Of a stretch of DNA of 64,000 bases, positions 26,980 to 63,502 are shown in pieces. Within the stretch, counting starts at the first letter, position 1. The number at the start of each line of letters is the position of its first letter. Origin of the DNA: Parcubacteria group bacterium LiPW_15 (GTDB taxonomy: Bacteria; Patescibacteriota; Minisyncoccia; UBA6257; 2-01-FULL-56-20). Both the position numbers and the translations under genes were made by a program. Below the pieces are notes generated by a model. It was not told where the DNA came from and did not search any database. It saw only the letters and a program-made list of their open reading frames with translations. Location of the stretch: contig VMER01000001.1 of NCBI GenBank assembly GCA_007375645.1, forward strand, positions 5,139 through 69,138, read 5' to 3'.

Positions 26980-27466
26980 AAAAGAAGTTAAGGAAAAGAA
27001 GCCGATTGCCCACAAGGCTCCTGCGGATAAGCCGGTAGCTCATCATGCTGCCACCCATGCCGCTCCGGCGGTTAAGGCCGGCCGTTATTTTGAAGGCATT
27101 GGCCGTAGGAAGACTGCGTCCGCCAGAGTGCGTGTTTCTAAGGGCTCCGGAAAGTTTGTTGTAAACGGCCGCACAGTGGACAAATATTTTCAAACGAATA
27201 AACTCCTCGCTATCGCCGAAGAGTCGCTTAAAAGGCTCAATATGGCGGATAACGTGGATGTGAGCGTGAAGATCGATGGCGGAGGCATCAACGCCCAGGC
27301 CGAGGCCGTAAGACACGGTGTTTCTAGGGCCCTGGTCTTAATGCAGCCCGACTTAAAGCTCCAATTGGCCTCTCTGGGACTTCTGACCCGCGACTCCCGC
27401 ATGGTGGAACGCAAGAAGCCAGGTTTGAAGAAAGCCAGAAGGGCTCCGCAGTGGAAGAAACGGTAA
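26957..27466 (+). CDS. rpsI: 30S ribosomal protein S9 with N-terminal extension
   Basis: GRRKTASARVRVSKGSGKFVVNGR...PQWKKR C-terminus is the S9 signature. About 40 aa extra Lys/Ala-rich N-terminus. Confidence 0.9.
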   Translation: MEKKQMIKKEVKEKKPIAHKAPADKPVAHHAATHAAPAVKAGRYFEGIGRRKTASARVRVSKGSGKFVVNGRTVDKYFQTNKLLAIAEESLKRLNMADNVDVSVKIDGGGINAQAEAVRHGVSRALVLMQPDLKLQLASLGLLTRDSRMVERKKPGLKKARRAPQWKKR

Positions 27467-27470
27467 TTCA

Positions 27471-27497
27471 AAAGCTCCCCGAAAGGGGAGCTTTTAG
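27471..27497 (+). terminator. Intrinsic terminator after rpsI
   Basis: aaagctcccc-gaaa-ggggagctttt hairpin followed by a T-run. Confidence 0.8.
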
Positions 27498-27519
27498 TTT
27501 CTCCCATTGCGGAGATGGA

Positions 27520-27603
27520 GGGGGTCGGGGAGGAACGGGAAATGAGTTCCTCCCCGTGTTGGAATTACTCAGAACCGAGGGTTTTGAGGGAGCGGAGCGA
27601 CGC
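27520..27603 (+). repeat. Structured intergenic repeat, copy A (about 80 nt)
   Basis: gggggtcgggg...ctccccgtgt.gaattactca.aaccgagggtt.tgagggagcggagcga, about 85% identical to 43191..43269. Internal stem ggggagg/cctcccc. Confidence 0.75.
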
Positions 27604-27632
27604 CGCATTGGAAGAAACGTTAAAAAAAGAAA

Positions 27633-27658
27633 CCCCGCGAAAGCGGGGATTTCTTTTA
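27633..27658 (+). terminator. Second intrinsic terminator after the repeat
   Basis: ccccgcgaaagcgggg hairpin followed by atttctttt. Confidence 0.7.
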
Positions 27659-27877
27659 GTTCTCATTCTTGTAACCTTTGACAAGCCAACCCGTTATATT
27701 GTATGCTCCCGACCATGATTAAAAGTCATAACATCTTTAATAGCTTATTGCGGCAGGGGAACTTCGATTCTCCGAAGGCTGTATTTATTGCCACCAATTG
27801 GGGCACTTCTATGTTTGGCGATTGGCGACGCATATTTGATTTTCAAAAACATAAATAAAGGTAAATGTTTTGAAACC

Positions 27878-31310: not shown

Positions 31311-31369
31311 TGGTGTAAATGCGTTATAAAAAAGTTAGCTGTCCTATTGATATCGAGAGGAGAAGCACC

Positions 31370-32620
31370 ATGAGACTTGTTCGCATTCTTCCGCTTTTGC
31401 TTGGGACGACGCTTCTGGCCGAATCGCCCAAGCCGCAAGGATCTTTAACCACCTGGGAAAAAATTGCGAAGGCTAAGGAAGTTCTCCGAATCGAAGAACC
31501 GAAGCCGATCTATGCCTCGCGTAAGGGCAAGGCTACGCTTGTCGGCAAGGAATCGCTTCGAGCGCTGGAGCGGCCTGACGGAACTTTTCATGTGGTTCGA
31601 ATCAGGCTTCTCTTCGTAAGGAGGGGAAAAAACATCGATACCGCCGTTCAATCCGTTTATCCCGAATTCTGCGCGGCGGAGCGGATAAACGGCGGAGGAG
31701 TAAATGCCAGTTATCGCGTTCTCTGCGATGGCGTGGAAGAAACGGTTTTCGCCGGGAAGGATCTGAACAGTAGGGGCAAGGAGATAACCGGTCCGGATGG
31801 AAAGCCGGAATGCTATGTTCCGTATTCCGACGCGCTGGCAACTCCGGAAGTTGTCGAAGCGGGAAGAGCGTATCTCAAAAAGCAGATATCGCTCGCCGCG
31901 AATGAGCTTCGCGCTCAAAGGGTTCACTCTCGCGGGATTCCCGGGAAACTTGTAGCTGACGTTTTCCAGGAAAAGATGCTCTACGATCTCGCGGTCATTG
32001 AACACGTCGACCACAAGGAATTCTACGATGAATCCACGGGGAAACTTCCCGAGAATTACACACAGGAAAAAGTTCTGGCCCAACTCAGCTTGAACGGACC
32101 GGAGGCATTCTTCTATTCCAAGAGCAAGATTCGCGGAACTACTGCTGGGGCGCTTTGCCTCATGCAGATAATGCCTTCAACCTATAACGACCGGAAAGAA
32201 AAAAGAACCGGGAAGATTCGAAAGGGCATAAGGAGCAGCTATCCCGAGGCGAGGCTTCCGTTGTCTGCCCAGGAAGGTTCCTGCGGGAGCCATGCTTCCG
32301 CTATCAAAACCGCCTACCTAGTGTTGGACTCCAAGCTTTCTGCTATGCAACCGGAATTCAAGCGACTCTTCGCAGAAGATCCTGAGACCTATGGCGTGTA
32401 TCTAGCTGTTGCCTATAACGGCGGGGAGGTCCGCGCGAGAAATCTATTCGCGAAAACGAGAAATCCAGCTTTCAAGCTCAAGGAGATTCTCAATGATCTA
32501 TTCCGCACGTTGGGGCTCAAAAAAGAACGCCAAAAGCTTTCAGTGCTAAGGCAGGAGACTTGGATCTACATCAAGAAATACTTCGAACTTTCAAACATCC
32601 CCGATGCGAACGGGGAGTGA
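31370..32620 (+). CDS. Secreted lytic transglycosylase (SLT domain)
   Basis: Signal peptide MRLVRILPLLLGTTLLA after a strong SD (gagaggagaag). SLT motifs GALCLMQIMPSTY and AYNGG. Confidence 0.65.
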   Translation: MRLVRILPLLLGTTLLAESPKPQGSLTTWEKIAKAKEVLRIEEPKPIYASRKGKATLVGKESLRALERPDGTFHVVRIRLLFVRRGKNIDTAVQSVYPEFCAAERINGGGVNASYRVLCDGVEETVFAGKDLNSRGKEITGPDGKPECYVPYSDALATPEVVEAGRAYLKKQISLAANELRAQRVHSRGIPGKLVADVFQEKMLYDLAVIEHVDHKEFYDESTGKLPENYTQEKVLAQLSLNGPEAFFYSKSKIRGTTAGALCLMQIMPSTYNDRKEKRTGKIRKGIRSSYPEARLPLSAQEGSCGSHASAIKTAYLVLDSKLSAMQPEFKRLFAEDPETYGVYLAVAYNGGEVRARNLFAKTRNPAFKLKEILNDLFRTLGLKKERQKLSVLRQETWIYIKKYFELSNIPDANGE

Positions 32621-32626
32621 CTCCGA

Positions 32627-32652
32627 CCCCGCTTCACGGCGGGGTTTTTCAT
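32627..32652 (+). terminator. Intrinsic terminator after the SLT gene
   Basis: ccccgc-ttcac-ggcgggg followed by tttttc. Confidence 0.75.
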
Positions 32653-32839
32653 GTTTAAGAGATTGCAGGGCTACCGGGAGGGTTTCACCGATTTATTTTC
32701 CGGCGGAAGAATTTCTTTTTGGAGAAGTCCTCGGAGGCGCTTCCGGCTTGGTATTCGAAGAATCGGAAGTGCCGAGAGACAGCGAACAGCCGCCGCCGGA
32801 GCGGTTGTATCGCGATTCTCAAAAAAGGAATTCTGAAGC

Positions 32840-32857
32840 TAGTCGGGCTGCCGGGAA
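32840..32857. repeat. Direct repeat of the tRNA-Pro 3' end (att-like)
   Basis: tagtcgggctgccgggaa is identical to 33020..33037, the 3' acceptor/T-stem of the minus-strand tRNA-Pro. Lies 165 bp downstream of the tRNA 3' end. Confidence 0.7.
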
Positions 32858-33022
32858 AATTTCACTACTCGGCTTTTAGCCTGTGTTTTCCGAACCCACG
32901 GTTCTGAATAATCTCCTCCACGGAGGGGACGATATTGCGTCCCCTCCGACCCACCCCTCCGTTCAATTCCCGGCACAAAAAATAAAATAGCCTGCCGATA
33001 AAAGGCAAGCTATTTTATTTAG

Positions 33023-33093
33023 TCGGGCTGCCGGGAATTGAACCCGGTCTACATGCACCCCATGCATGCGTACTACCGGTATACTACAGCCCG
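33023..33093 (-). tRNA. tRNA-Pro (anticodon GGG)
   Basis: Manual cloverleaf on the minus strand: acceptor CGGGCTG/CAGCCCG, D-arm GTAT-ACCGGTA-GTAC, anticodon stem CATGC/GCATG with loop ATGGGGT, T-arm CCGGG-TTCAATT-CCCGG. Confidence 0.8.
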
Positions 33094-33176
33094 CTGAACA
33101 TTGATTTTGAACTAACGACGACCGAATCACCCTACCACGGTTCATATAATCCTGTCCTCCAAAGCAGAACGACGGA

Positions 33177-33266
33177 GGATATACTACAGCCCGAAGTGAA
33201 GAGTAAAATGATTGCTCGCGATCATTTTAGCTAAACGATAGGGATGAAAGCTATACTTACAGCCCG
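33177..33266. repeat. Two upstream partial copies of the tRNA-Pro 5' end within a degenerate tandem repeat of about 95 nt
   Basis: tatactacagcccg at 33180..33193 and tatact-tacagcccg at 33252..33266 copy the first 14 nt of the tRNA (minus-strand CGGGCTGTAGTATA). The following 80 nt are also similar to each other (gaagagtaaaatgatt vs gaggagcgaaatgatt, cattttagctaaacgatagg vs cattttctccgaacaaatcttagctaggacg). Confidence 0.65.
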
Positions 33267-33323
33267 TAACGAGGAGCGAAATGATTATATCCTACATCGC
33301 CATTTTCTCCGAACAAATCTTAG

Positions 33324-34349
33324 CTAGGACGATCTTATGACATGTTTTTTGGGCGGCGGCGGTTCCTTTATGCCTTTCGCCACAAAAATAGGTTCTTCTT
33401 CGTCCGCATAATTTGTGAAGAGGGCGTCTACTTGAATTTTAATCTCATTGTATATTTCGTCTTTTCTTACGGCGGCAAATATGGCGTCTTGCAGCGCCTT
33501 ATCTTTTGGCATTTTGTCTCGTATCACCTCCTCAATTCCCTGAAGGTCGCTTTTTATCGGCTGAATAATACTGCTTCCTCCGGTCTGCTCCGCCAGTTTC
33601 AAATATGCCCGCAATTGCAGAAGAATCTCGTAGAGAATTACAAATTGCATTATATGTTGCTCGAGCTTTTGTGAGGCAGCATCTATCTCTGCTGGGGCAT
33701 TATATTCATCAATATTTTCCAGGTCGTACGTCACACCGGCAAGTGCCGAATTTTTTTTACGGTCCGCACCGATGGCCACCAGGGGAACGTTATTTAATTC
33801 ACCGTTGTATCTATCTGTTTTGAAGTACTTAACGCCGGGGAGTTTCTTTTTAAGGATCAAATCGCGTTGTCGACGCATTTTACCTGGAATCTCGGAGGCG
33901 CTTACGGTAGTATCTATCCCGACTGCCAATTGTTGCGCTCCATTCAGTTCGGCGACGATGTCCACGCCGCCAAAATAATCGTCTATCTTGGAAGCGGGTC
34001 TAATCGTAGAATTTTTACCCAGCCACTTTCCATTTTGCAGAGCATAGATCGTCGCCATTTCGGAAATTTTGGCCCGGTCTCTTGAAAAAACCGCTTCTGG
34101 GTCGACTGCCAAATTATGTTCTCTTTCCCGCTCACGCTTGATTTCCTCTCCTTTTATCCTTGATCTATCTGCCATCGCGTTTTCGCTGGGATTCCCAGAG
34201 GAGGATTCCATCGGGATCCTTTGGCTTTCTATTTTCGCTTCCAATATTCTAGATAGCCTTTTTTCCTTGTCGGACAATTCGCCACGTTCGCCCAAAAAAC
34301 CACCCTTTTTTTCATTGGATGGAAGAAACTCTTGCGGTCTTTCTCTCAT
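33324..34349 (-). CDS. Hypothetical protein adjacent to the tRNA-Pro hotspot
   Basis: 341 aa. Charged, low-complexity N-terminus (EEIKREREREH). No recognised domain. Confidence 0.45.
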   Translation of the reverse strand: MRERPQEFLPSNEKKGGFLGERGELSDKEKRLSRILEAKIESQRIPMESSSGNPSENAMADRSRIKGEEIKREREREHNLAVDPEAVFSRDRAKISEMATIYALQNGKWLGKNSTIRPASKIDDYFGGVDIVAELNGAQQLAVGIDTTVSASEIPGKMRRQRDLILKKKLPGVKYFKTDRYNGELNNVPLVAIGADRKKNSALAGVTYDLENIDEYNAPAEIDAASQKLEQHIMQFVILYEILLQLRAYLKLAEQTGGSSIIQPIKSDLQGIEEVIRDKMPKDKALQDAIFAAVRKDEIYNEIKIQVDALFTNYADEEEPIFVAKGIKEPPPPKKHVIRSS

Positions 34350-41702: not shown

Positions 41703-41718
41703 CGTGTTTAGAGAAAGA

Positions 41719-43227
41719 ATGCTAAATAGGTTTTACGAGATTCTTCCGGGCAGTCTTGCCTGGGCCACCCTTATTGGTATGGTCGTTTTTTCCTGGGTAC
41801 TGCCGACGGCGGTTTCCGTTTTTATAATTCTTTTTGATATCTACTGGCTTTTGAAGACCGTCTATCTTTCATTACACCTGCGTTCGACTTTCTCCGAAAT
41901 GAAGCAGAACATGGCCACCGATTGGCTTTCGCGACTCAAAAAAGAAAAAACCGGCTGGGAAAATATCGAACACCTGATAATTTTCCCGATGTATAAAGAG
42001 CCGTATGAGGTGGTCAAAGAAAGTTTTGAAAGTTTAACGCACGCAAATTATCCGAAAGAAAAAATGATGGTGGTTTTGGCCATCGAAGAATTGGCGGGGG
42101 ATTTTGCCAAAGATGTCGCGGAAAAAACTAAAAAAGATTTTGAGAAGAGGTTCGGCGCGTTTCTTATAACTGTCCACCCTAAAGATTTACCCGGGGAGAT
42201 TCCCGGCAAGGGAGGCAACGAAACTTGGGCTGCCAAAGAAGCAAAAAAAATTCTTATTGATGGAAAGCTAGAGCCGCAAAATGTTCTAGTCTCGTCTTTT
42301 GATGTGGACACTCAGATATTTTCGGAATATTTCGGGAAACTCACTTACACCTTCCTTTCCGAAGAAAATAAATTGCGGGCAATCTACCAACCAATTCCAT
42401 TTTTCACGAATAATGTTTACGACAGTCCGGCCATCGCACGAGTTATATCTTTTTCTTCTACTTTCTGGCAGATGATGCAGCAATCGAGACCCGAAAGACT
42501 TACTAGCTTTTCCTCGCAATCGATTCCCCTGAGCGCGCTTATGGATGTGGGTTTCTGGCACACGGATATGGTCTCTGAGGACTCCCGCATTTTCTGGCAG
42601 GGATATTTAGCTTATCACGGAGATTTTCGCGTCGTTCCGCTTCACTATCCCGTTTCTATGGACGCGAATGTCGCTCACACTCTTTGGGGGACTATGAAAA
42701 ATCTTTACAAACAGCAAAGGCGTTGGGGCTGGGGCTGTGAGAATATCCCGTATATGTTGGGTGGCTTTAGGAAGGACCCGAAGATCCCGGCCGCGAAAAA
42801 AAGATACTGGACATTTCAGGTGCTCGAGGGATTTCATTCCTGGGCTACGAACTCGATCATGATCTTCGCGCTCGGCTGGCTCCCGGTGTATCTTGGCGGA
42901 AAAACTTTTAATCTTTCATTGTTGTCGCACAGTTTGCCGGACATCACTCGGCTTATAATCCAAATTTCCATGCTTGGTATCGCAAGCTCCGCCATTTTGG
43001 GCATCATGCTTCTGCCTCCGAAGCCCGTTTGGTTCAAACCCTACCATTACGCTCTTTATGTTTTGCAGTGGGCGCTTATCCCGGTTTCGCTCATAATTTT
43101 CGGTGCGATTCCAGGACTTGAGGCGCAGACGAGACTGATGCTCGGCGGAAAGTTTAGGTTGGGATTTTGGGTAACCCCAAAATCCCGAAAGGGGGTCGGG
43201 GGAGAGCGGAAGGGCTCCCCCGTGTAA
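41719..43227 (+). CDS. Membrane glycosyltransferase, GT2-like (cellulose-synthase-like motifs)
   Basis: N-terminal TMs. DVDT (DxD-like) and QQRRWGWG (QxxRW) motifs. C-terminal TMs. Start ATG 41719 preferred over GTG 41704, which abuts the tRNA. The last 12 codons lie in repeat copy B. Confidence 0.55.
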   Translation: MLNRFYEILPGSLAWATLIGMVVFSWVLPTAVSVFIILFDIYWLLKTVYLSLHLRSTFSEMKQNMATDWLSRLKKEKTGWENIEHLIIFPMYKEPYEVVKESFESLTHANYPKEKMMVVLAIEELAGDFAKDVAEKTKKDFEKRFGAFLITVHPKDLPGEIPGKGGNETWAAKEAKKILIDGKLEPQNVLVSSFDVDTQIFSEYFGKLTYTFLSEENKLRAIYQPIPFFTNNVYDSPAIARVISFSSTFWQMMQQSRPERLTSFSSQSIPLSALMDVGFWHTDMVSEDSRIFWQGYLAYHGDFRVVPLHYPVSMDANVAHTLWGTMKNLYKQQRRWGWGCENIPYMLGGFRKDPKIPAAKKRYWTFQVLEGFHSWATNSIMIFALGWLPVYLGGKTFNLSLLSHSLPDITRLIIQISMLGIASSAILGIMLLPPKPVWFKPYHYALYVLQWALIPVSLIIFGAIPGLEAQTRLMLGGKFRLGFWVTPKSRKGVGGERKGSPV

Positions 43228-43269
43228 GAAATTACTCAAAACCGAGGGTTGTGAGGGAGCGGAGCGATG
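43191..43269 (+). repeat. Structured intergenic repeat, copy B
   Basis: gggggtcgggggagagcggaagggctcccccgtgtaagaaattactcaaaaccgagggttgtgagggagcggagcgatg. Stem gggggag/ctccccc is conserved with a different loop relative to copy A. Confidence 0.75.
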
Positions 43270-43336
43270 ATTTTGTGGTCACGCCGAAACATAGGAAAGC
43301 CTAAAAACTTAATTCCAAAGTGCTATAATATTCTTA

Positions 43337-60764: not shown

Positions 60765-61157
60765 ATGGAAAACGAAAAAATAGAAAAATTAGTAACCGAA
60801 GCGGAAGAAACCAGACTCATAGAGGCAGCCAAACTGCATGCCGAGTCTGTGGAGGGAAAAGAAATGAAGGGTGAAGAACTAATGAAGAAGGCAATTCAAT
60901 CCGTAACTCAAACCGTGCCGGTTCCGGAGCAGGCTGAGCCAAATTCCATTCAGAATCCTTTGACCGATTACACCGCGCAAGAACCGGAAGAAGTAAAAAG
61001 GAAGATCGAAGATCTTCTGCAGATCGCGGCGACCGATGGAATAGTCAGGGCTACGGAGGCGGCAAAACACGCCTCACCTTTCATCCTGGATGCTTTTCAT
61101 GACGCTTTAGCGGCAAAAGTCTATCCATACCTTCGGGAGAAAGGATTATTCAAATAA
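60765..61157 (+). CDS. Hypothetical acidic protein
   Basis: 130 aa, precedes the coupling ATPase with a 1-nt overlap. Confidence 0.4.
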   Translation: MENEKIEKLVTEAEETRLIEAAKLHAESVEGKEMKGEELMKKAIQSVTQTVPVPEQAEPNSIQNPLTDYTAQEPEEVKRKIEDLLQIAATDGIVRATEAAKHASPFILDAFHDALAAKVYPYLREKGLFK

Positions 61158-63502
61158 TGCTCACAGCCCTTTTTGTTTTTTTGGTGGCCGCAATACTCTC
61201 CGGGATCCTGTTTTTTGTTATCCGGTCCATTCATCGCAAGCGAACCATAAAAGATTCGCTGGAATACTCGCTTTTTGTGGTTCGTCTGCCAAAAAACCAA
61301 AAAACCGAGGGCCAGGACCCTAAGGCGGAGATAAATAAGTTCGAAGAATTTTTAAGCAGTTTACAAGGCCTAAAAAAACCGATGACTTTTGAGGTGGCGG
61401 TTCCGCATATCGGCGAAGAAATATCTTTTTATATTTCCGTGCCGAACGAGTTTACGGAAATGGCCAGACGGCAAATTCAGGGAATTTGGACCAAAGCAAG
61501 TATAGAAGAGGCGAGAGAAGATTATAATATTTTCAATTCCACCGGAGCCGCCTCCGCCGTATATTTGGCGCAAAAAGAGAATTTTTCTTTGCCCATAAAA
61601 ACTTATGAAGGCTTCGGCGCGGATACAGCCGCCGCGATATTCGGCGGTTTTACGAAGATGAGCGAGATAGGCGAAGGCGCTTCGCTTCAGATAGTTTTGC
61701 GTCCGGCCAAAAGCGAAGCCAGAAAAACTTTGAATTCGCATCTGGGTTCGTTCAAGAAGGGTTGGACCCGCAAGCAGATATTCGCGAGCGGTTTTTCCGC
61801 TGCCATAAAATCTTCAAGCCCCAAAGATGACAAAGAAAAAGAGCCTAAAGTCTTGGATGAAGAAGCGATAAAAATGTTGCAGGCGAAAACGAGCAAGCCC
61901 TTGTTCGAGGCCAATGTTCGCATTGCCGCAAGCGCTCCGATCCAGGTCCTCTCCGATAACATTTTGGGCGGCATAGCCGCAGGTTTCGAGCAATTTTCCT
62001 TGCCGCAGGGCAACCAGTTCAAAATAGTAAAGCCGAAAAATCCAGGCAACCTGATATTCGATTTTGTTTTTCGGGCCTTTAATGAAAACCAGAAAATAAT
62101 TTTGAATTCCGAAGAGATCGCAAGTTTTTATCATTTTCCGACTTCCGCCACGGAAACCCCGCGAATGAACTGGCTGAAATCCAAGGAAGCCCCTCCGCCG
62201 TCCGAACTCCCTTCGGAAGGAACTTTGATCGGGGAGAGCATTTTCCGCGGGGAAAGAAAGCCTATACGCATAACCGACGAAGACCGCCGCCGCCATATTT
62301 ATATAGTTGGTCAAACCGGAACCGGTAAAACTGTTTTTATAAACAATTGTGTAATTCAGGATATTGCCCGGGGCAAGGGCCTCGCAATAATCGATCCGCA
62401 TGGAGACCTGGCGGAAGCGGCTCTTGCGAATGTTCCTCCCGAAAGGATGAACGACGTTATTTATTTCAGTCCCGCGGATCTCCAGAAACCCCTTGGACTC
62501 AATATGCTCGAATACAACTTCGATCGGCCGGAGGAAAAGACTTTTATCGTGAACGAGATGCAGAGCATTTTTAATAAGCTTTTCAGCCAGGAAACCATGG
62601 GCCCGATGTTCGAACAATATATGCGGAACGCCCTTCTTCTCCTTATGGAAGACATGGTGAACGAACCGGCGACCCTCATCGAAGTTCCGCGTGTTTTTAC
62701 CGATCCCGAATTTCGCAAGCGAAAACTCGCGCGCATCAAAAATCCCACAGTCATAGATTTCTGGGAGAAAGAGGCCGCGAAGGCTGGCGGAGACGCGTCG
62801 CTTGCGAACATGACGCCTTATATAACCTCCAAGTTCAACAACTTTATTTCCAATGACTATATGCGGCCGATAATCGGTCAGGCCAAATCCTCCTTCAATT
62901 TTCGGGAGGTGATGGATTCCGGAAAGATACTCCTCATCAATCTTTCGAAGGGTAAGATCGGCGATATTAACGCTAATCTTTTGGGCATGGTGATAACCGG
63001 CAAACTCCTGATGGCCGCGCTCTCGCGCGTGGATATCGCCGACCAGAATGCCCGCAAGGATTTTAATTTATATATAGACGAATTCCAGAATTTCACGACC
63101 GATAGTATTTCCACCATTCTTTCGGAAGCGCGCAAATACCGTTTGAATCTGACGATCGCGCACCAATTCATCGCTCAGCTTACCGAAAAAATAAGGGATT
63201 CTGTTTTCGGCAATGTCGGCGCGCAGATAGTTTTCCGGGTTGGCGTGCAGGACGCGGAGTTTTTGGTGAAGCAATTCGAACCGGTCTTTGACGTTAACGA
63301 TCTTATCAATATCCCGAATCTTAATGCGCATGCCAAAATTCTCATAAACGGCCATCCGGCAAACCCGTTTAATTTGAGGGAAGGTTTTCCGCCAAAAGGG
63401 AGCTTGGAGGTGACTGAGAAACTTAAGGAGATGTCGCGTTCCCAATACGGAATGGAACGTAATACGGTGGAAGAGGAGATATATAGACGCTTACGGACAT
63501 GA
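61157..63502 (+). CDS. Type IV secretion/conjugation coupling-protein-like ATPase (VirD4/TraD/TraG family, AAA-like)
   Basis: N-terminal TM. Walker A HIYIVGQTGTGKT, Walker B LYIDEFQNF. C-terminal region similar to TraD-type coupling proteins. Confidence 0.6.
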   Translation: MLTALFVFLVAAILSGILFFVIRSIHRKRTIKDSLEYSLFVVRLPKNQKTEGQDPKAEINKFEEFLSSLQGLKKPMTFEVAVPHIGEEISFYISVPNEFTEMARRQIQGIWTKASIEEAREDYNIFNSTGAASAVYLAQKENFSLPIKTYEGFGADTAAAIFGGFTKMSEIGEGASLQIVLRPAKSEARKTLNSHLGSFKKGWTRKQIFASGFSAAIKSSSPKDDKEKEPKVLDEEAIKMLQAKTSKPLFEANVRIAASAPIQVLSDNILGGIAAGFEQFSLPQGNQFKIVKPKNPGNLIFDFVFRAFNENQKIILNSEEIASFYHFPTSATETPRMNWLKSKEAPPPSELPSEGTLIGESIFRGERKPIRITDEDRRRHIYIVGQTGTGKTVFINNCVIQDIARGKGLAIIDPHGDLAEAALANVPPERMNDVIYFSPADLQKPLGLNMLEYNFDRPEEKTFIVNEMQSIFNKLFSQETMGPMFEQYMRNALLLLMEDMVNEPATLIEVPRVFTDPEFRKRKLARIKNPTVIDFWEKEAAKAGGDASLANMTPYITSKFNNFISNDYMRPIIGQAKSSFNFREVMDSGKILLINLSKGKIGDINANLLGMVITGKLLMAALSRVDIADQNARKDFNLYIDEFQNFTTDSISTILSEARKYRLNLTIAHQFIAQLTEKIRDSVFGNVGAQIVFRVGVQDAEFLVKQFEPVFDVNDLINIPNLNAHAKILINGHPANPFNLREGFPPKGSLEVTEKLKEMSRSQYGMERNTVEEEIYRRLRT

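Follow-up and report, generated by a model that had tools for sequence, protein, structure and literature searches.

We analysed a 64,000-nt stretch of DNA from Parcubacteria group bacterium LiPW_15, referred to here as the window (all coordinates are positions within it), in which a tRNA-Pro(GGG) gene is followed by a second copy of its own 3' end. This repeat belongs to a family of short cassettes at conserved gene ends that share the layout a-(T)-a'-core-a, where a stands for the final 10-80 nt of the neighbouring gene, a' for a segment of a in inverted orientation, and T for a terminator-like hairpin; the cassettes are patchily distributed, stacked in places and polymorphic at their boundaries. 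The copy of a that is attached to the gene keeps that gene intact, and the distal copy is a displaced old gene end. A scan of the window with the covariance model (CM) R1, confirmed with all filters off, found exactly three copies, at the tRNA, at rpsI and at a gene of the GT2 family (Table 1).

The tRNA-Pro locus

ARAGORN and Rfam both call the tRNA that an initial annotation had recognised, and the repeat reported there is exact: the 18-mer TAGTCGGGCTGCCGGGAA occurs at 33020-33037 (a1) and at 32840-32857 (a2), 180 nt apart from start to start, with 162 nt and not 165 nt between the copies. Within a1 lie the end of the T-loop, the 3' strand of the T-stem, the 3' strand of the acceptor stem, the discriminator and 3 nt of trailer. 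With up to two mismatches allowed, a 15-mer of the 3' repeat is expected 0.25 times by chance in the window, and none of 100 shuffles matched the observed count.

On the tRNA strand, a1 is separated from a' by the hairpin T1, whose 17-bp stem (previously given as 13 bp) is followed by TTTTTTG; a scan for consensus terminators made no call there. The inverted T-arm copy a', which had also been noticed, with coordinates off by 1-4 nt, corresponds to the T-loop and the 3' strand of the T-stem and is complementary throughout to 33029-33043. It forms the 5' strand of P1, the helix that closes the module, and a2 supplies the 3' strand of P1 together with an unpaired acceptor-like tail. The core between them runs from J1 (GGGGUGGGUCGG) through hairpin A (32921-32948, CGGAGGGGACG/CGTCCCCTCCG, the other hairpin named at the outset) and J2 (GUGGAGGAG) to hairpin B (32888-32908, apex AACCGUGGGUU), hairpin C (32871-32881) and J4 (GAGUAGUGAAAUU). 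A degenerate third copy of the tRNA end, candidate a3, lies 177 nt beyond a2 with a GGTGAAAC motif before it, and may, at low confidence, close an older, decayed second unit at 32681-32839.

Loci with L numbers below come from public genome and metagenome assemblies that were compared with the window. The motif CAAYCGCTCCGGCGGCG.YTGTT is common to the possible decayed unit (32780-32812) and to L114 (7457-7612), where it sits in a hairpin with a 25-bp stem between the tRNA and the module.

Table 1. Features of the tRNA-Pro locus and the two related cassettes in the window.
Feature	Position	Strand	Evidence and composition
tRNA-Pro(GGG), intact, CCA not encoded	33022-33093	-	ARAGORN; Rfam RF00005, 55.8 bits
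a1, repeated gene-end segment	33020-33037	-	Exact 18-nt direct repeat of 32840-32857
T1, terminator-like hairpin separating a1 from a'	32980-33020	-	Inverted repeat: 17-bp stem, 7-nt loop
a', inverted copy of tRNA T-loop and T-stem 3' strand	32961-32975	-	15 nt, 100% complementary to 33029-33043
Conserved core	32858-32960	-	CM R1 match 32842-32974, 110.7 bits, E = 5e-20; covariation; fold z-score -2.1
a2, second tRNA 3'-end copy	32840-32857	-	Exact repeat; L002 departs from the window right past a2
Candidate a3, degenerate third 3'-end copy (13/18 nt)	32663-32680	-	72% identity, spacing 177/180; low confidence
100-bp population-variable unit	33094-33193	-	Absent from L002, L003, L004, L133; present in L001
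Oldest tRNA 5'-end copy, 1-nt insertion	33252-33266	-	Hairpin 33204-33229 next to it; homologous 5' pieces in L138, L139
rpsI family member	27446-27654	+	CM match 27506-27649, 51.6 bits, E = 5e-8; a1 27446-27466 (final codons and stop), T1 27470-27495, a' 27497-27512, core 27517-27602, a2 27603-27623 (repeat of 21-nt gene end), T2 27628-27654
GT2 family member, 3' end of gene 41704-43227	43161-43278	+	CM match 43189-43287, 43.6 bits, E = 2e-6; a1 43161-43171, a' 43175-43186 (native GFWVTPK codons), core 43189-43269, a2 43269-43278

Together, a1, T1 and a' form one long palindrome centred on the terminator-like hairpin (32961-33043, 77% over 87 nt). This arrangement would suit an origin of the arms as mutational by-products, in which template switching at terminator hairpins (quasi-palindrome correction) copies upstream sequence first into a' and then into a2, leaving arms that have no function or mobility of their own around a core that is an unrelated repeat. 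The length of a' across loci (13-17 nt) would likewise fit the short patches produced by this known mechanism. It leaves unexplained, however, the relic terminators from other lineages and the repeats of 27-80 nt described below; the tRNA-Gly and tRNA-Glu genes of the window show nothing similar, with no comparable end fragments, and in every unbiased match the architecture goes with the core. We regard this origin as very unlikely.

A conserved, folded module

The initial annotation had proposed a search of the rest of the assembly for the DNA between the repeats; the module recurs in other genomes. When metagenomes were scanned with the anticodon arm of the tRNA-Pro, 120 tRNA-Pro(GGG) loci were obtained, 95 of them with enough downstream sequence; seven of these 95 carry the cassette, showing a direct 3'-end copy at about +215-375 nt and, nearer to the gene, an inverted T-arm copy at about +100-130 nt, and it is absent from the remaining 93%. 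A genome scan with a two-arm pattern gave 30 loci against about 2 expected by our own estimate; about 27 of them are in metagenome-assembled genomes (MAGs) of Patescibacteria. A tRNA-Pro gene (GGG, CGG or TGG) was detected just upstream in 23 of the 27, a bias that is partly built in, since the pattern was designed around tRNA-Pro arms. The element is conserved across several candidate phyla, in Kaiser-, Colwell-, Nomura-, Andersen- and Liptonbacteria-like MAGs.

Between the arms, the sequence can be aligned across genomes as a module of about 130 nt, the insert ranging from about 130 to 215 bp. The aligned order is GGGAAUYGAAC, GGGGUCGG, hairpin A and CCGUGUAGGAA, followed by hairpin B (apex AACCGWGGGUU), a variable hairpin C, GAGUAGUGARAU and the 3' strand of the tRNA. 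A second subfamily has the identical design built from different sequences. In the R1 alignment of 27 copies, 93.4% of cells at paired positions are paired, against at most 61% when the partners are slid; fitting the alignment to the model biases it towards structure, yet the gap between the two values is wide. Changes on both sides were found for 16 pairs, and in none of 500 shuffles were the observed values attained. In hairpin A, 99% of cells are paired and seven of the nine pairs show compensatory changes. Of 32 modules, 28 fold better on the tRNA-sense strand than on the complementary one, and G-U pairs outnumber A-C pairs by 19 to 9.

The closing helix follows its neighbour: a' matches the T-loop variant of the local tRNA in 27 of 30 tRNA-linked loci, and the closing pair of P1 is U-G in 9 of 23. 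At L139, P1 carries a compensatory change from C-G to U-A, while the tRNA copy retains the G. At L184 (2065-2135), behind rpsI and between inverted and direct copies of the rpsI end, the core is circularly permuted, with hairpin A opened as the closing helix and hairpin B joined straight to the GGGGGUC strand. This permutation argues that the core is a folded junction, made of two covarying hairpins, the conserved joining strands GGGGGUCGG and CCGUGUAGGAA, and the apex AACCGAGGGUU. No terminator stands between tRNA and module at L147, L153 and L173. The permutation, the P1 compensation at L139 and the presumed co-transcription at the three loci that lack T1 point to a folded RNA; a core without a preceding terminator would be transcribed within the tRNA trailer and probably acts as such.

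Rfam 15, searched at permissive E-values with two copies (32550-33400 and 27440-27700), returned only terminator-like or spurious matches (SpF41, leader peptides, miRNA models), and we found no description of the element in the published literature, where the one related paper deals with group I introns (PMC13011429; see below). In a comparison by eye with their consensus sequences, tmRNA, RNase P, signal recognition particle RNA, YrlA, T-box, hammerhead, twister, hairpin and group II domain V all appear not to fit.

The main rival reading takes the module as an RNA switch that acts in cis from the 3' trailer, and the repeats as a requirement of that switch and not the outcome of insertion. 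In such a switch a' would pair either with a1, masking the T-arm of the tRNA or the stop region of an mRNA, or with a2, closing P1 and folding the core, and the core would sense a ligand or protein and so control the maturation or stability of the upstream RNA. The strong covariation, the permuted core, the conserved unpaired junction sequences, the compensated and U-G-closed P1 helices and the presumably co-transcribed modules all speak for it, as do the retention of the core behind rpsI in several lineages and the divergence of copies within one genome, to which we turn now.

Copies at other gene ends

At rpsI the arms repeat the final codons and stop codon of the gene, the inverted copy being GTTTCTCCCATTGCGG. 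The GT2 (cellulose-synthase-like) copy has the arms GGGATTTTGGG, CCCCAAAATCCC and GATTTTGTGG; its a1 and a' are native codons of the C-terminal motif RLGFWVTPK, which is conserved in homologues. The open reading frame (ORF) runs on into the core (43189-43227), gaining about 15-35 residues after RLGFWVTPK; the homologues P0123 and P0141 share these tails encoded by the core, and most others stop 3-15 residues past TPK. The three copies in the window have diverged from one another, with compensatory changes in hairpin A.

Elsewhere, copies follow rpsI at L054 and L182 and tRNA-His at L147, where a' is GATGGGACTTGAAC and a 27-nt direct repeat extends 11 nt into the trailer. The L132 copy is antisense to fusA and sits at its 5' end; the relic flanking it measures about 80 nt and comprises the 5' untranslated region (UTR) and the first 21 codons. 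The same architecture thus occurs at rpsI, GT2, tRNA-His and fusA, and the tRNA specificity of insertion that had been supposed does not hold.

A shorter core, type 2, was seen between a' and a2 behind rpsI at L180 (2053-2120), L179 (2110-2150) and L182 (2255-2300). It reads GGGCGCAGAGTTCTCGCAG..CTTGGAGCG.AGCGAC and has only the 3' motif GGAGCGNAGCGAC in common with the main core.

Relics, stacking and an unoccupied site

The intact gene always adjoins a1, and the copy farther away is a relic, often still with its old terminator. At rpsI, the real gene end of the window with T1 is identical at 48 of 55 positions to a relic copy in L182, whose own real rpsI end is different and which carries two stacked units. 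Conversely, the relic a2 with T2 in the window matches the real rpsI end and terminator of L180 at 50 of 56 positions, and a relic in L179 at 45 of 48. The closest relative at rpsI, L177 (S9 protein 92% identical), lacks the cassette altogether: beyond the stop codon there is just one terminator, with 73 nt up to the next gene. Tandem units follow tRNA-Pro at L095, L150, L163 and L168. In the sister species L154, identity to the window is 92% in the tRNA, 88% in T1, 100% in a2 and 80% in the downstream flank, but only 57% in the core, which suggests either exchange of the core between the arms or a fast turnover constrained only by structure.

These findings bear on the RNA switch in several ways. 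A switch would not call for an a2 far longer than P1 needs, extending to an old stop codon and terminator, to 27 nt at tRNA-His and to about 80 nt at fusA; nor does it sit well with a T-run hairpin ahead of a' at the tRNA-Pro locus and at rpsI, with the lack of the cassette at 93% of tRNA-Pro(GGG) loci and at the closest rpsI relative, or with a module antisense to fusA. Point mutation, moreover, cannot produce a 16-nt complement. We consider the switch a doubtful account of the repeats, and note that it and a cassette origin are not exclusive.

The initial annotation had explained the repeats as attL and attR of a tyrosine integrase; in the classical form of this reading, prophages or islands integrated into the 3' end of tRNA-Pro and were later deleted, leaving attL, attR and remnants of attP arms. 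In the T-loop att class, direct repeats begin in the T-loop and extend beyond the end of the tRNA, and the repeat here does the same; tandem accretion at L095, L150, L163 and L168 and the breaks of population variants at the repeats (see below) are also as such scars would have them. What stands from that proposal is that the direct repeats act like attL and attR, the inserted DNA bringing a replacement gene end and the old end being displaced. An integrase origin is not supported. As the annotation itself remarked, the window has no integrase: Pfam found no integrase, recombinase or transposase domain (including Phage_integrase) among its 45 major ORFs, and none was noticed beside modules elsewhere. 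Among viral contigs, a tRNA-end 21-mer and the module pattern each gave 0 matches, and a tRNA-end 16-mer gave 21 matches, all within coding DNA and in the number expected by chance, so that no viral contig has the module, or the tRNA end in a tRNA-like context. Furthermore, rpsI, fusA and GT2 are not integrase targets, and an insert that is constantly about 130-215 bp long and conserved in structure across candidate phyla is not to be expected from independent deletions. A classical integrase scar is therefore unlikely: there is neither integrase nor viral attP, the targets include genes other than tRNAs, and the insert is conserved.

Variation at the tRNA-Pro locus

Upstream of the tRNA, its first 14 nt had been reported to recur twice within a degenerate tandem repeat. 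The recurrences are real, one exact (33180-33193, matched in 0 of 100 shuffles) and one with a single insertion (33252-33266). Tandem Repeats Finder called no tandem repeat in 32000-34000, the copies are spaced by 100 and 72 nt, and the upstream units share only a 29-nt stretch of 79% identity. The unit next to the gene (33094-33193) comprises the exact 14-nt copy and 86 nt that hold a partial, degenerate piece of core (resembling J2 and hairpin B), with 28 nt of similarity to the core.

The copy at 33252-33266 marks the ancestral start of the tRNA. In L154 the tRNA starts directly after ctcctcgtta, which in the window precedes this third 5' copy; it follows that two units, of about 73 and about 100 bp, were added upstream in the window lineage, the second of them still polymorphic in the population. 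The acceptor stem of the inner tRNA at L158 is a different one, yet the outer 5' fragment and the module tail still match each other, and the whole tRNA has therefore been replaced inside older ends. The upstream 5' fragments may be relics of comparable turnover that took place at the opposite gene end. We also considered whether upstream fragment and acceptor-like module tail form a split tRNA-like RNA as a general rule, and rejected this, as only the window with L133, L138, L139 and L158 have the fragment.

When other public assemblies of the same population, with identical flanking proteins, are aligned to the window, the differences fall at repeat boundaries. In the four assemblies that lack 33094-33193, the tRNA begins at the second 5' copy. 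Past the downstream 3' repeat, L002 has a different terminator hairpin and then a different gene, and L005 diverges at 32964, within the inverted T-arm copy, where its variant fits a tRNA with a TTCGACTC T-loop. Contigs end within 32935-33170 in four independent assemblies out of five (at 32935, 32940, about 33014 and about 33084), and the fifth, L002, continues past 32842 into sequence that is not present in the window. Such contig ends fit strain heterogeneity, and the variants are probably real, because assembler k-mers exceed the 14-18 nt of these repeats in length. Of the decayed or recombined hotspot suggested earlier, recombination is thus borne out by variants that break at the repeats, and decay is not, the supposed 165-bp filler being a conserved, covarying module.

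Nested tRNA-Pro genes without the core module were seen in metagenomes at L053, L071, L092, L106 and L130. In these, a complete tRNA-Pro(GGG) lies between the two halves of an outer tRNA-Pro, of which the 5' half ends within the anticodon loop (..CATGGGG) and the 3' half begins at ATGTAGACC. The leader and the trailer of the inner gene are complements of each other, as in ttttattcttttgGT[tRNA]caaaagaataaaa. Some of these loci may be assembly chimeras; L092 resembles the upstream part of L071 joined to the downstream part of L053.

The surrounding window

The window is ordinary core chromosome of a bacterium of the Patescibacteria (candidate phyla radiation, CPR), encoding FtsA/Z, DnaG, RpoD, AlaRS and further aminoacyl-tRNA synthetases, TsaD, MreBC, PBP2 and rpsD-rpoA-rplQ-rplM-rpsI. 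The nearest named relatives of its S9 protein are from Candidatus Liptonbacteria; an exact-match look-up of that protein with two alternative start codons gave no match. Rfam 15 reports three tRNAs above the gathering threshold in the window and nothing else, and a promoter scan called none.

Neither gene beside the locus (33324-34349 and 31319-32620) reaches the threshold of a Pfam family, and the 341-aa protein of the former has no Pfam match at all. The neighbour that the initial annotation named as a lytic transglycosylase has GLMQ- and AYNGG-like motifs in 433 aa, but its match to Pfam SLT stays below the cut-off (18.8 against 21.3 bits, E = 0.0013). Its description as mobile-element cargo is not supported: the setting is syntenic chromosome with the flank shared by the sister species. 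About 28 kb from the locus, a 781-aa ORF (61157-63502) has weak matches to T4SS-DNA_transf, TrwB and TraG-D_C, families of type IV secretion coupling proteins, and may belong to a machinery for DNA uptake or transfer.

Proposed recombination of gene-end cassettes

Our preferred reading, held with modest confidence, is that these are small (about 130-215 bp), non-coding gene-end cassettes of Patescibacteria that are driven by recombination with an att-like logic, the tRNA-end repeats being the cassette arms. Cassettes would be gained or exchanged through recombination within a, a' or a relic a with its T, probably by homologous recombination of the host following DNA uptake, for which the conserved gene body could serve as the other homology arm. 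The outcome would be repeats that look like attL and attR without integrase or cargo, and units that stack serially.

A number of observations weigh against this reading, in addition to the built-in tRNA-Pro bias of the two-arm scan. Arms that match a new target need a' and a to change together, and no mechanism is shown for that; neither a mobile intermediate nor a partner protein was seen. Copies within one genome are about 60-85% identical, unlike those of a recently active transposon, and such divergence is as compatible with functional RNAs inherited vertically as with mobility. At GT2, a1 and a' are native coding sequence and a2 cannot be recognised as a relic of the end of the gene. At some loci, tRNA-Pro here among them, transcription would be halted ahead of the core by T1 hairpins with T-runs. 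The partial core upstream of the tRNA is sense-oriented with the intact gene on its a2 side, contrary to the rule, and metagenome contigs can be chimeric at the conserved 72-nt tRNA, as exemplified by L092.

A bolder view, which we put forward tentatively, takes the cassette as a previously undescribed kind of protein-free mobile or exchangeable element whose folded, possibly catalytic core carries a surrogate copy of the end of its target. Such an element could insert into the ends of essential conserved genes (tRNAs, rpsI, fusA) without inactivating them, and could stack serially. Catalysis may be possible, given that the core is naturally circularly permuted and has a P1-like pairing with the upstream gene end. 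If true, the cassette would amount to a miniature integrative element, or to a parasite of gene termini that resembles an intron, and would be specific to Patescibacteria.

Genomes of Patescibacteria are tiny and leave little room for selfish DNA, yet a 64-kb core stretch holds three copies of the element. If cassettes moved by recombination are real, they would represent genome change without an integrase, and a recurring source of contig breaks in MAGs and of stray tRNA fragments in annotations; if the element is instead a cis-acting or catalytic RNA, it would found a new class of RNA linked with 3' ends, those of tRNAs and of ribosomal-protein mRNAs. On either reading, tRNA-end repeats in Patescibacteria are not automatically prophage scars.

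Comparison with known systems

The cassette is closest in logic to integrative elements that target tRNAs (T-loop class) and their integrase-less, cis-mobilizable (CIME-type) remnants, which likewise carry in a replacement 3' end, displace the old end as a direct repeat and accrete in tandem at the regenerated site. Of the marks of a tyrosine-integrase att site, it shows the flanking repeat of the 3' segment and the intact tRNA, and lacks the integrase, attP and a target restricted to tRNA or tmRNA genes. Unlike such elements, it has no integrase, cargo or phage attP and is only about 130-215 bp long with a conserved structure; its targets include rpsI, fusA and GT2, its repeats span 10-80 nt, and the inverted target copy a' is always present.

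With bacterial MITEs (miniature transposable elements with inverted repeats) and palindromic elements (the Rickettsia palindromic elements or RPEs, Correia, and the REP/BIME repeats), the cassette has in common that it is short, non-coding, rich in hairpins, present in several copies and intergenic or at gene ends, and at GT2 it can, as some palindromic elements can, be read as extra C-terminal residues. In contrast to MITEs, its arms are copied from each target and are not element-specific, there is no target duplication of fixed length (10 to about 80 nt), the copies are diverged with compensatory changes and not near-identical, and the core is conserved across candidate phyla and even occurs in a circularly permuted form.

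A variable closing helix around a conserved junction, together with natural circular permutation, recalls small junction ribozymes such as hammerhead and twister, and the pairing of a1 with a' recalls P1 of group I introns, where the upstream exon end pairs with an internal guide sequence. Group I introns are abundant in tRNA genes of Patescibacteria, including tRNA-Asn and tRNA-Asp (PMC13011429). The cassette differs from both in having no match to an Rfam ribozyme or intron and junction sequences other than those of known catalytic cores. Its core is too small for a group I intron, and the likeness to ribozymes and introns would rest on the permutation and the a1:a' pairing.

Casposon-like duplication, the variable and template repeats (VR/TR) of diversity-generating retroelements (DGRs) and integron attC were considered and set aside, given the variable repeat lengths, the essential conserved residues of the targets and arms that are not fixed. 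Folding of the inverted pair a':a could yield a duplex that copies the chromosomal target, a resemblance to CTX-type single-stranded DNA integration and integron attC; in those systems the sites are fixed and the recombinases dedicated (XerCD, IntI), whereas the duplex of the cassette changes with its target. Overall, the logic of the element resembles that of insertions that duplicate gene ends, and there is a real chance that it is new in kind.

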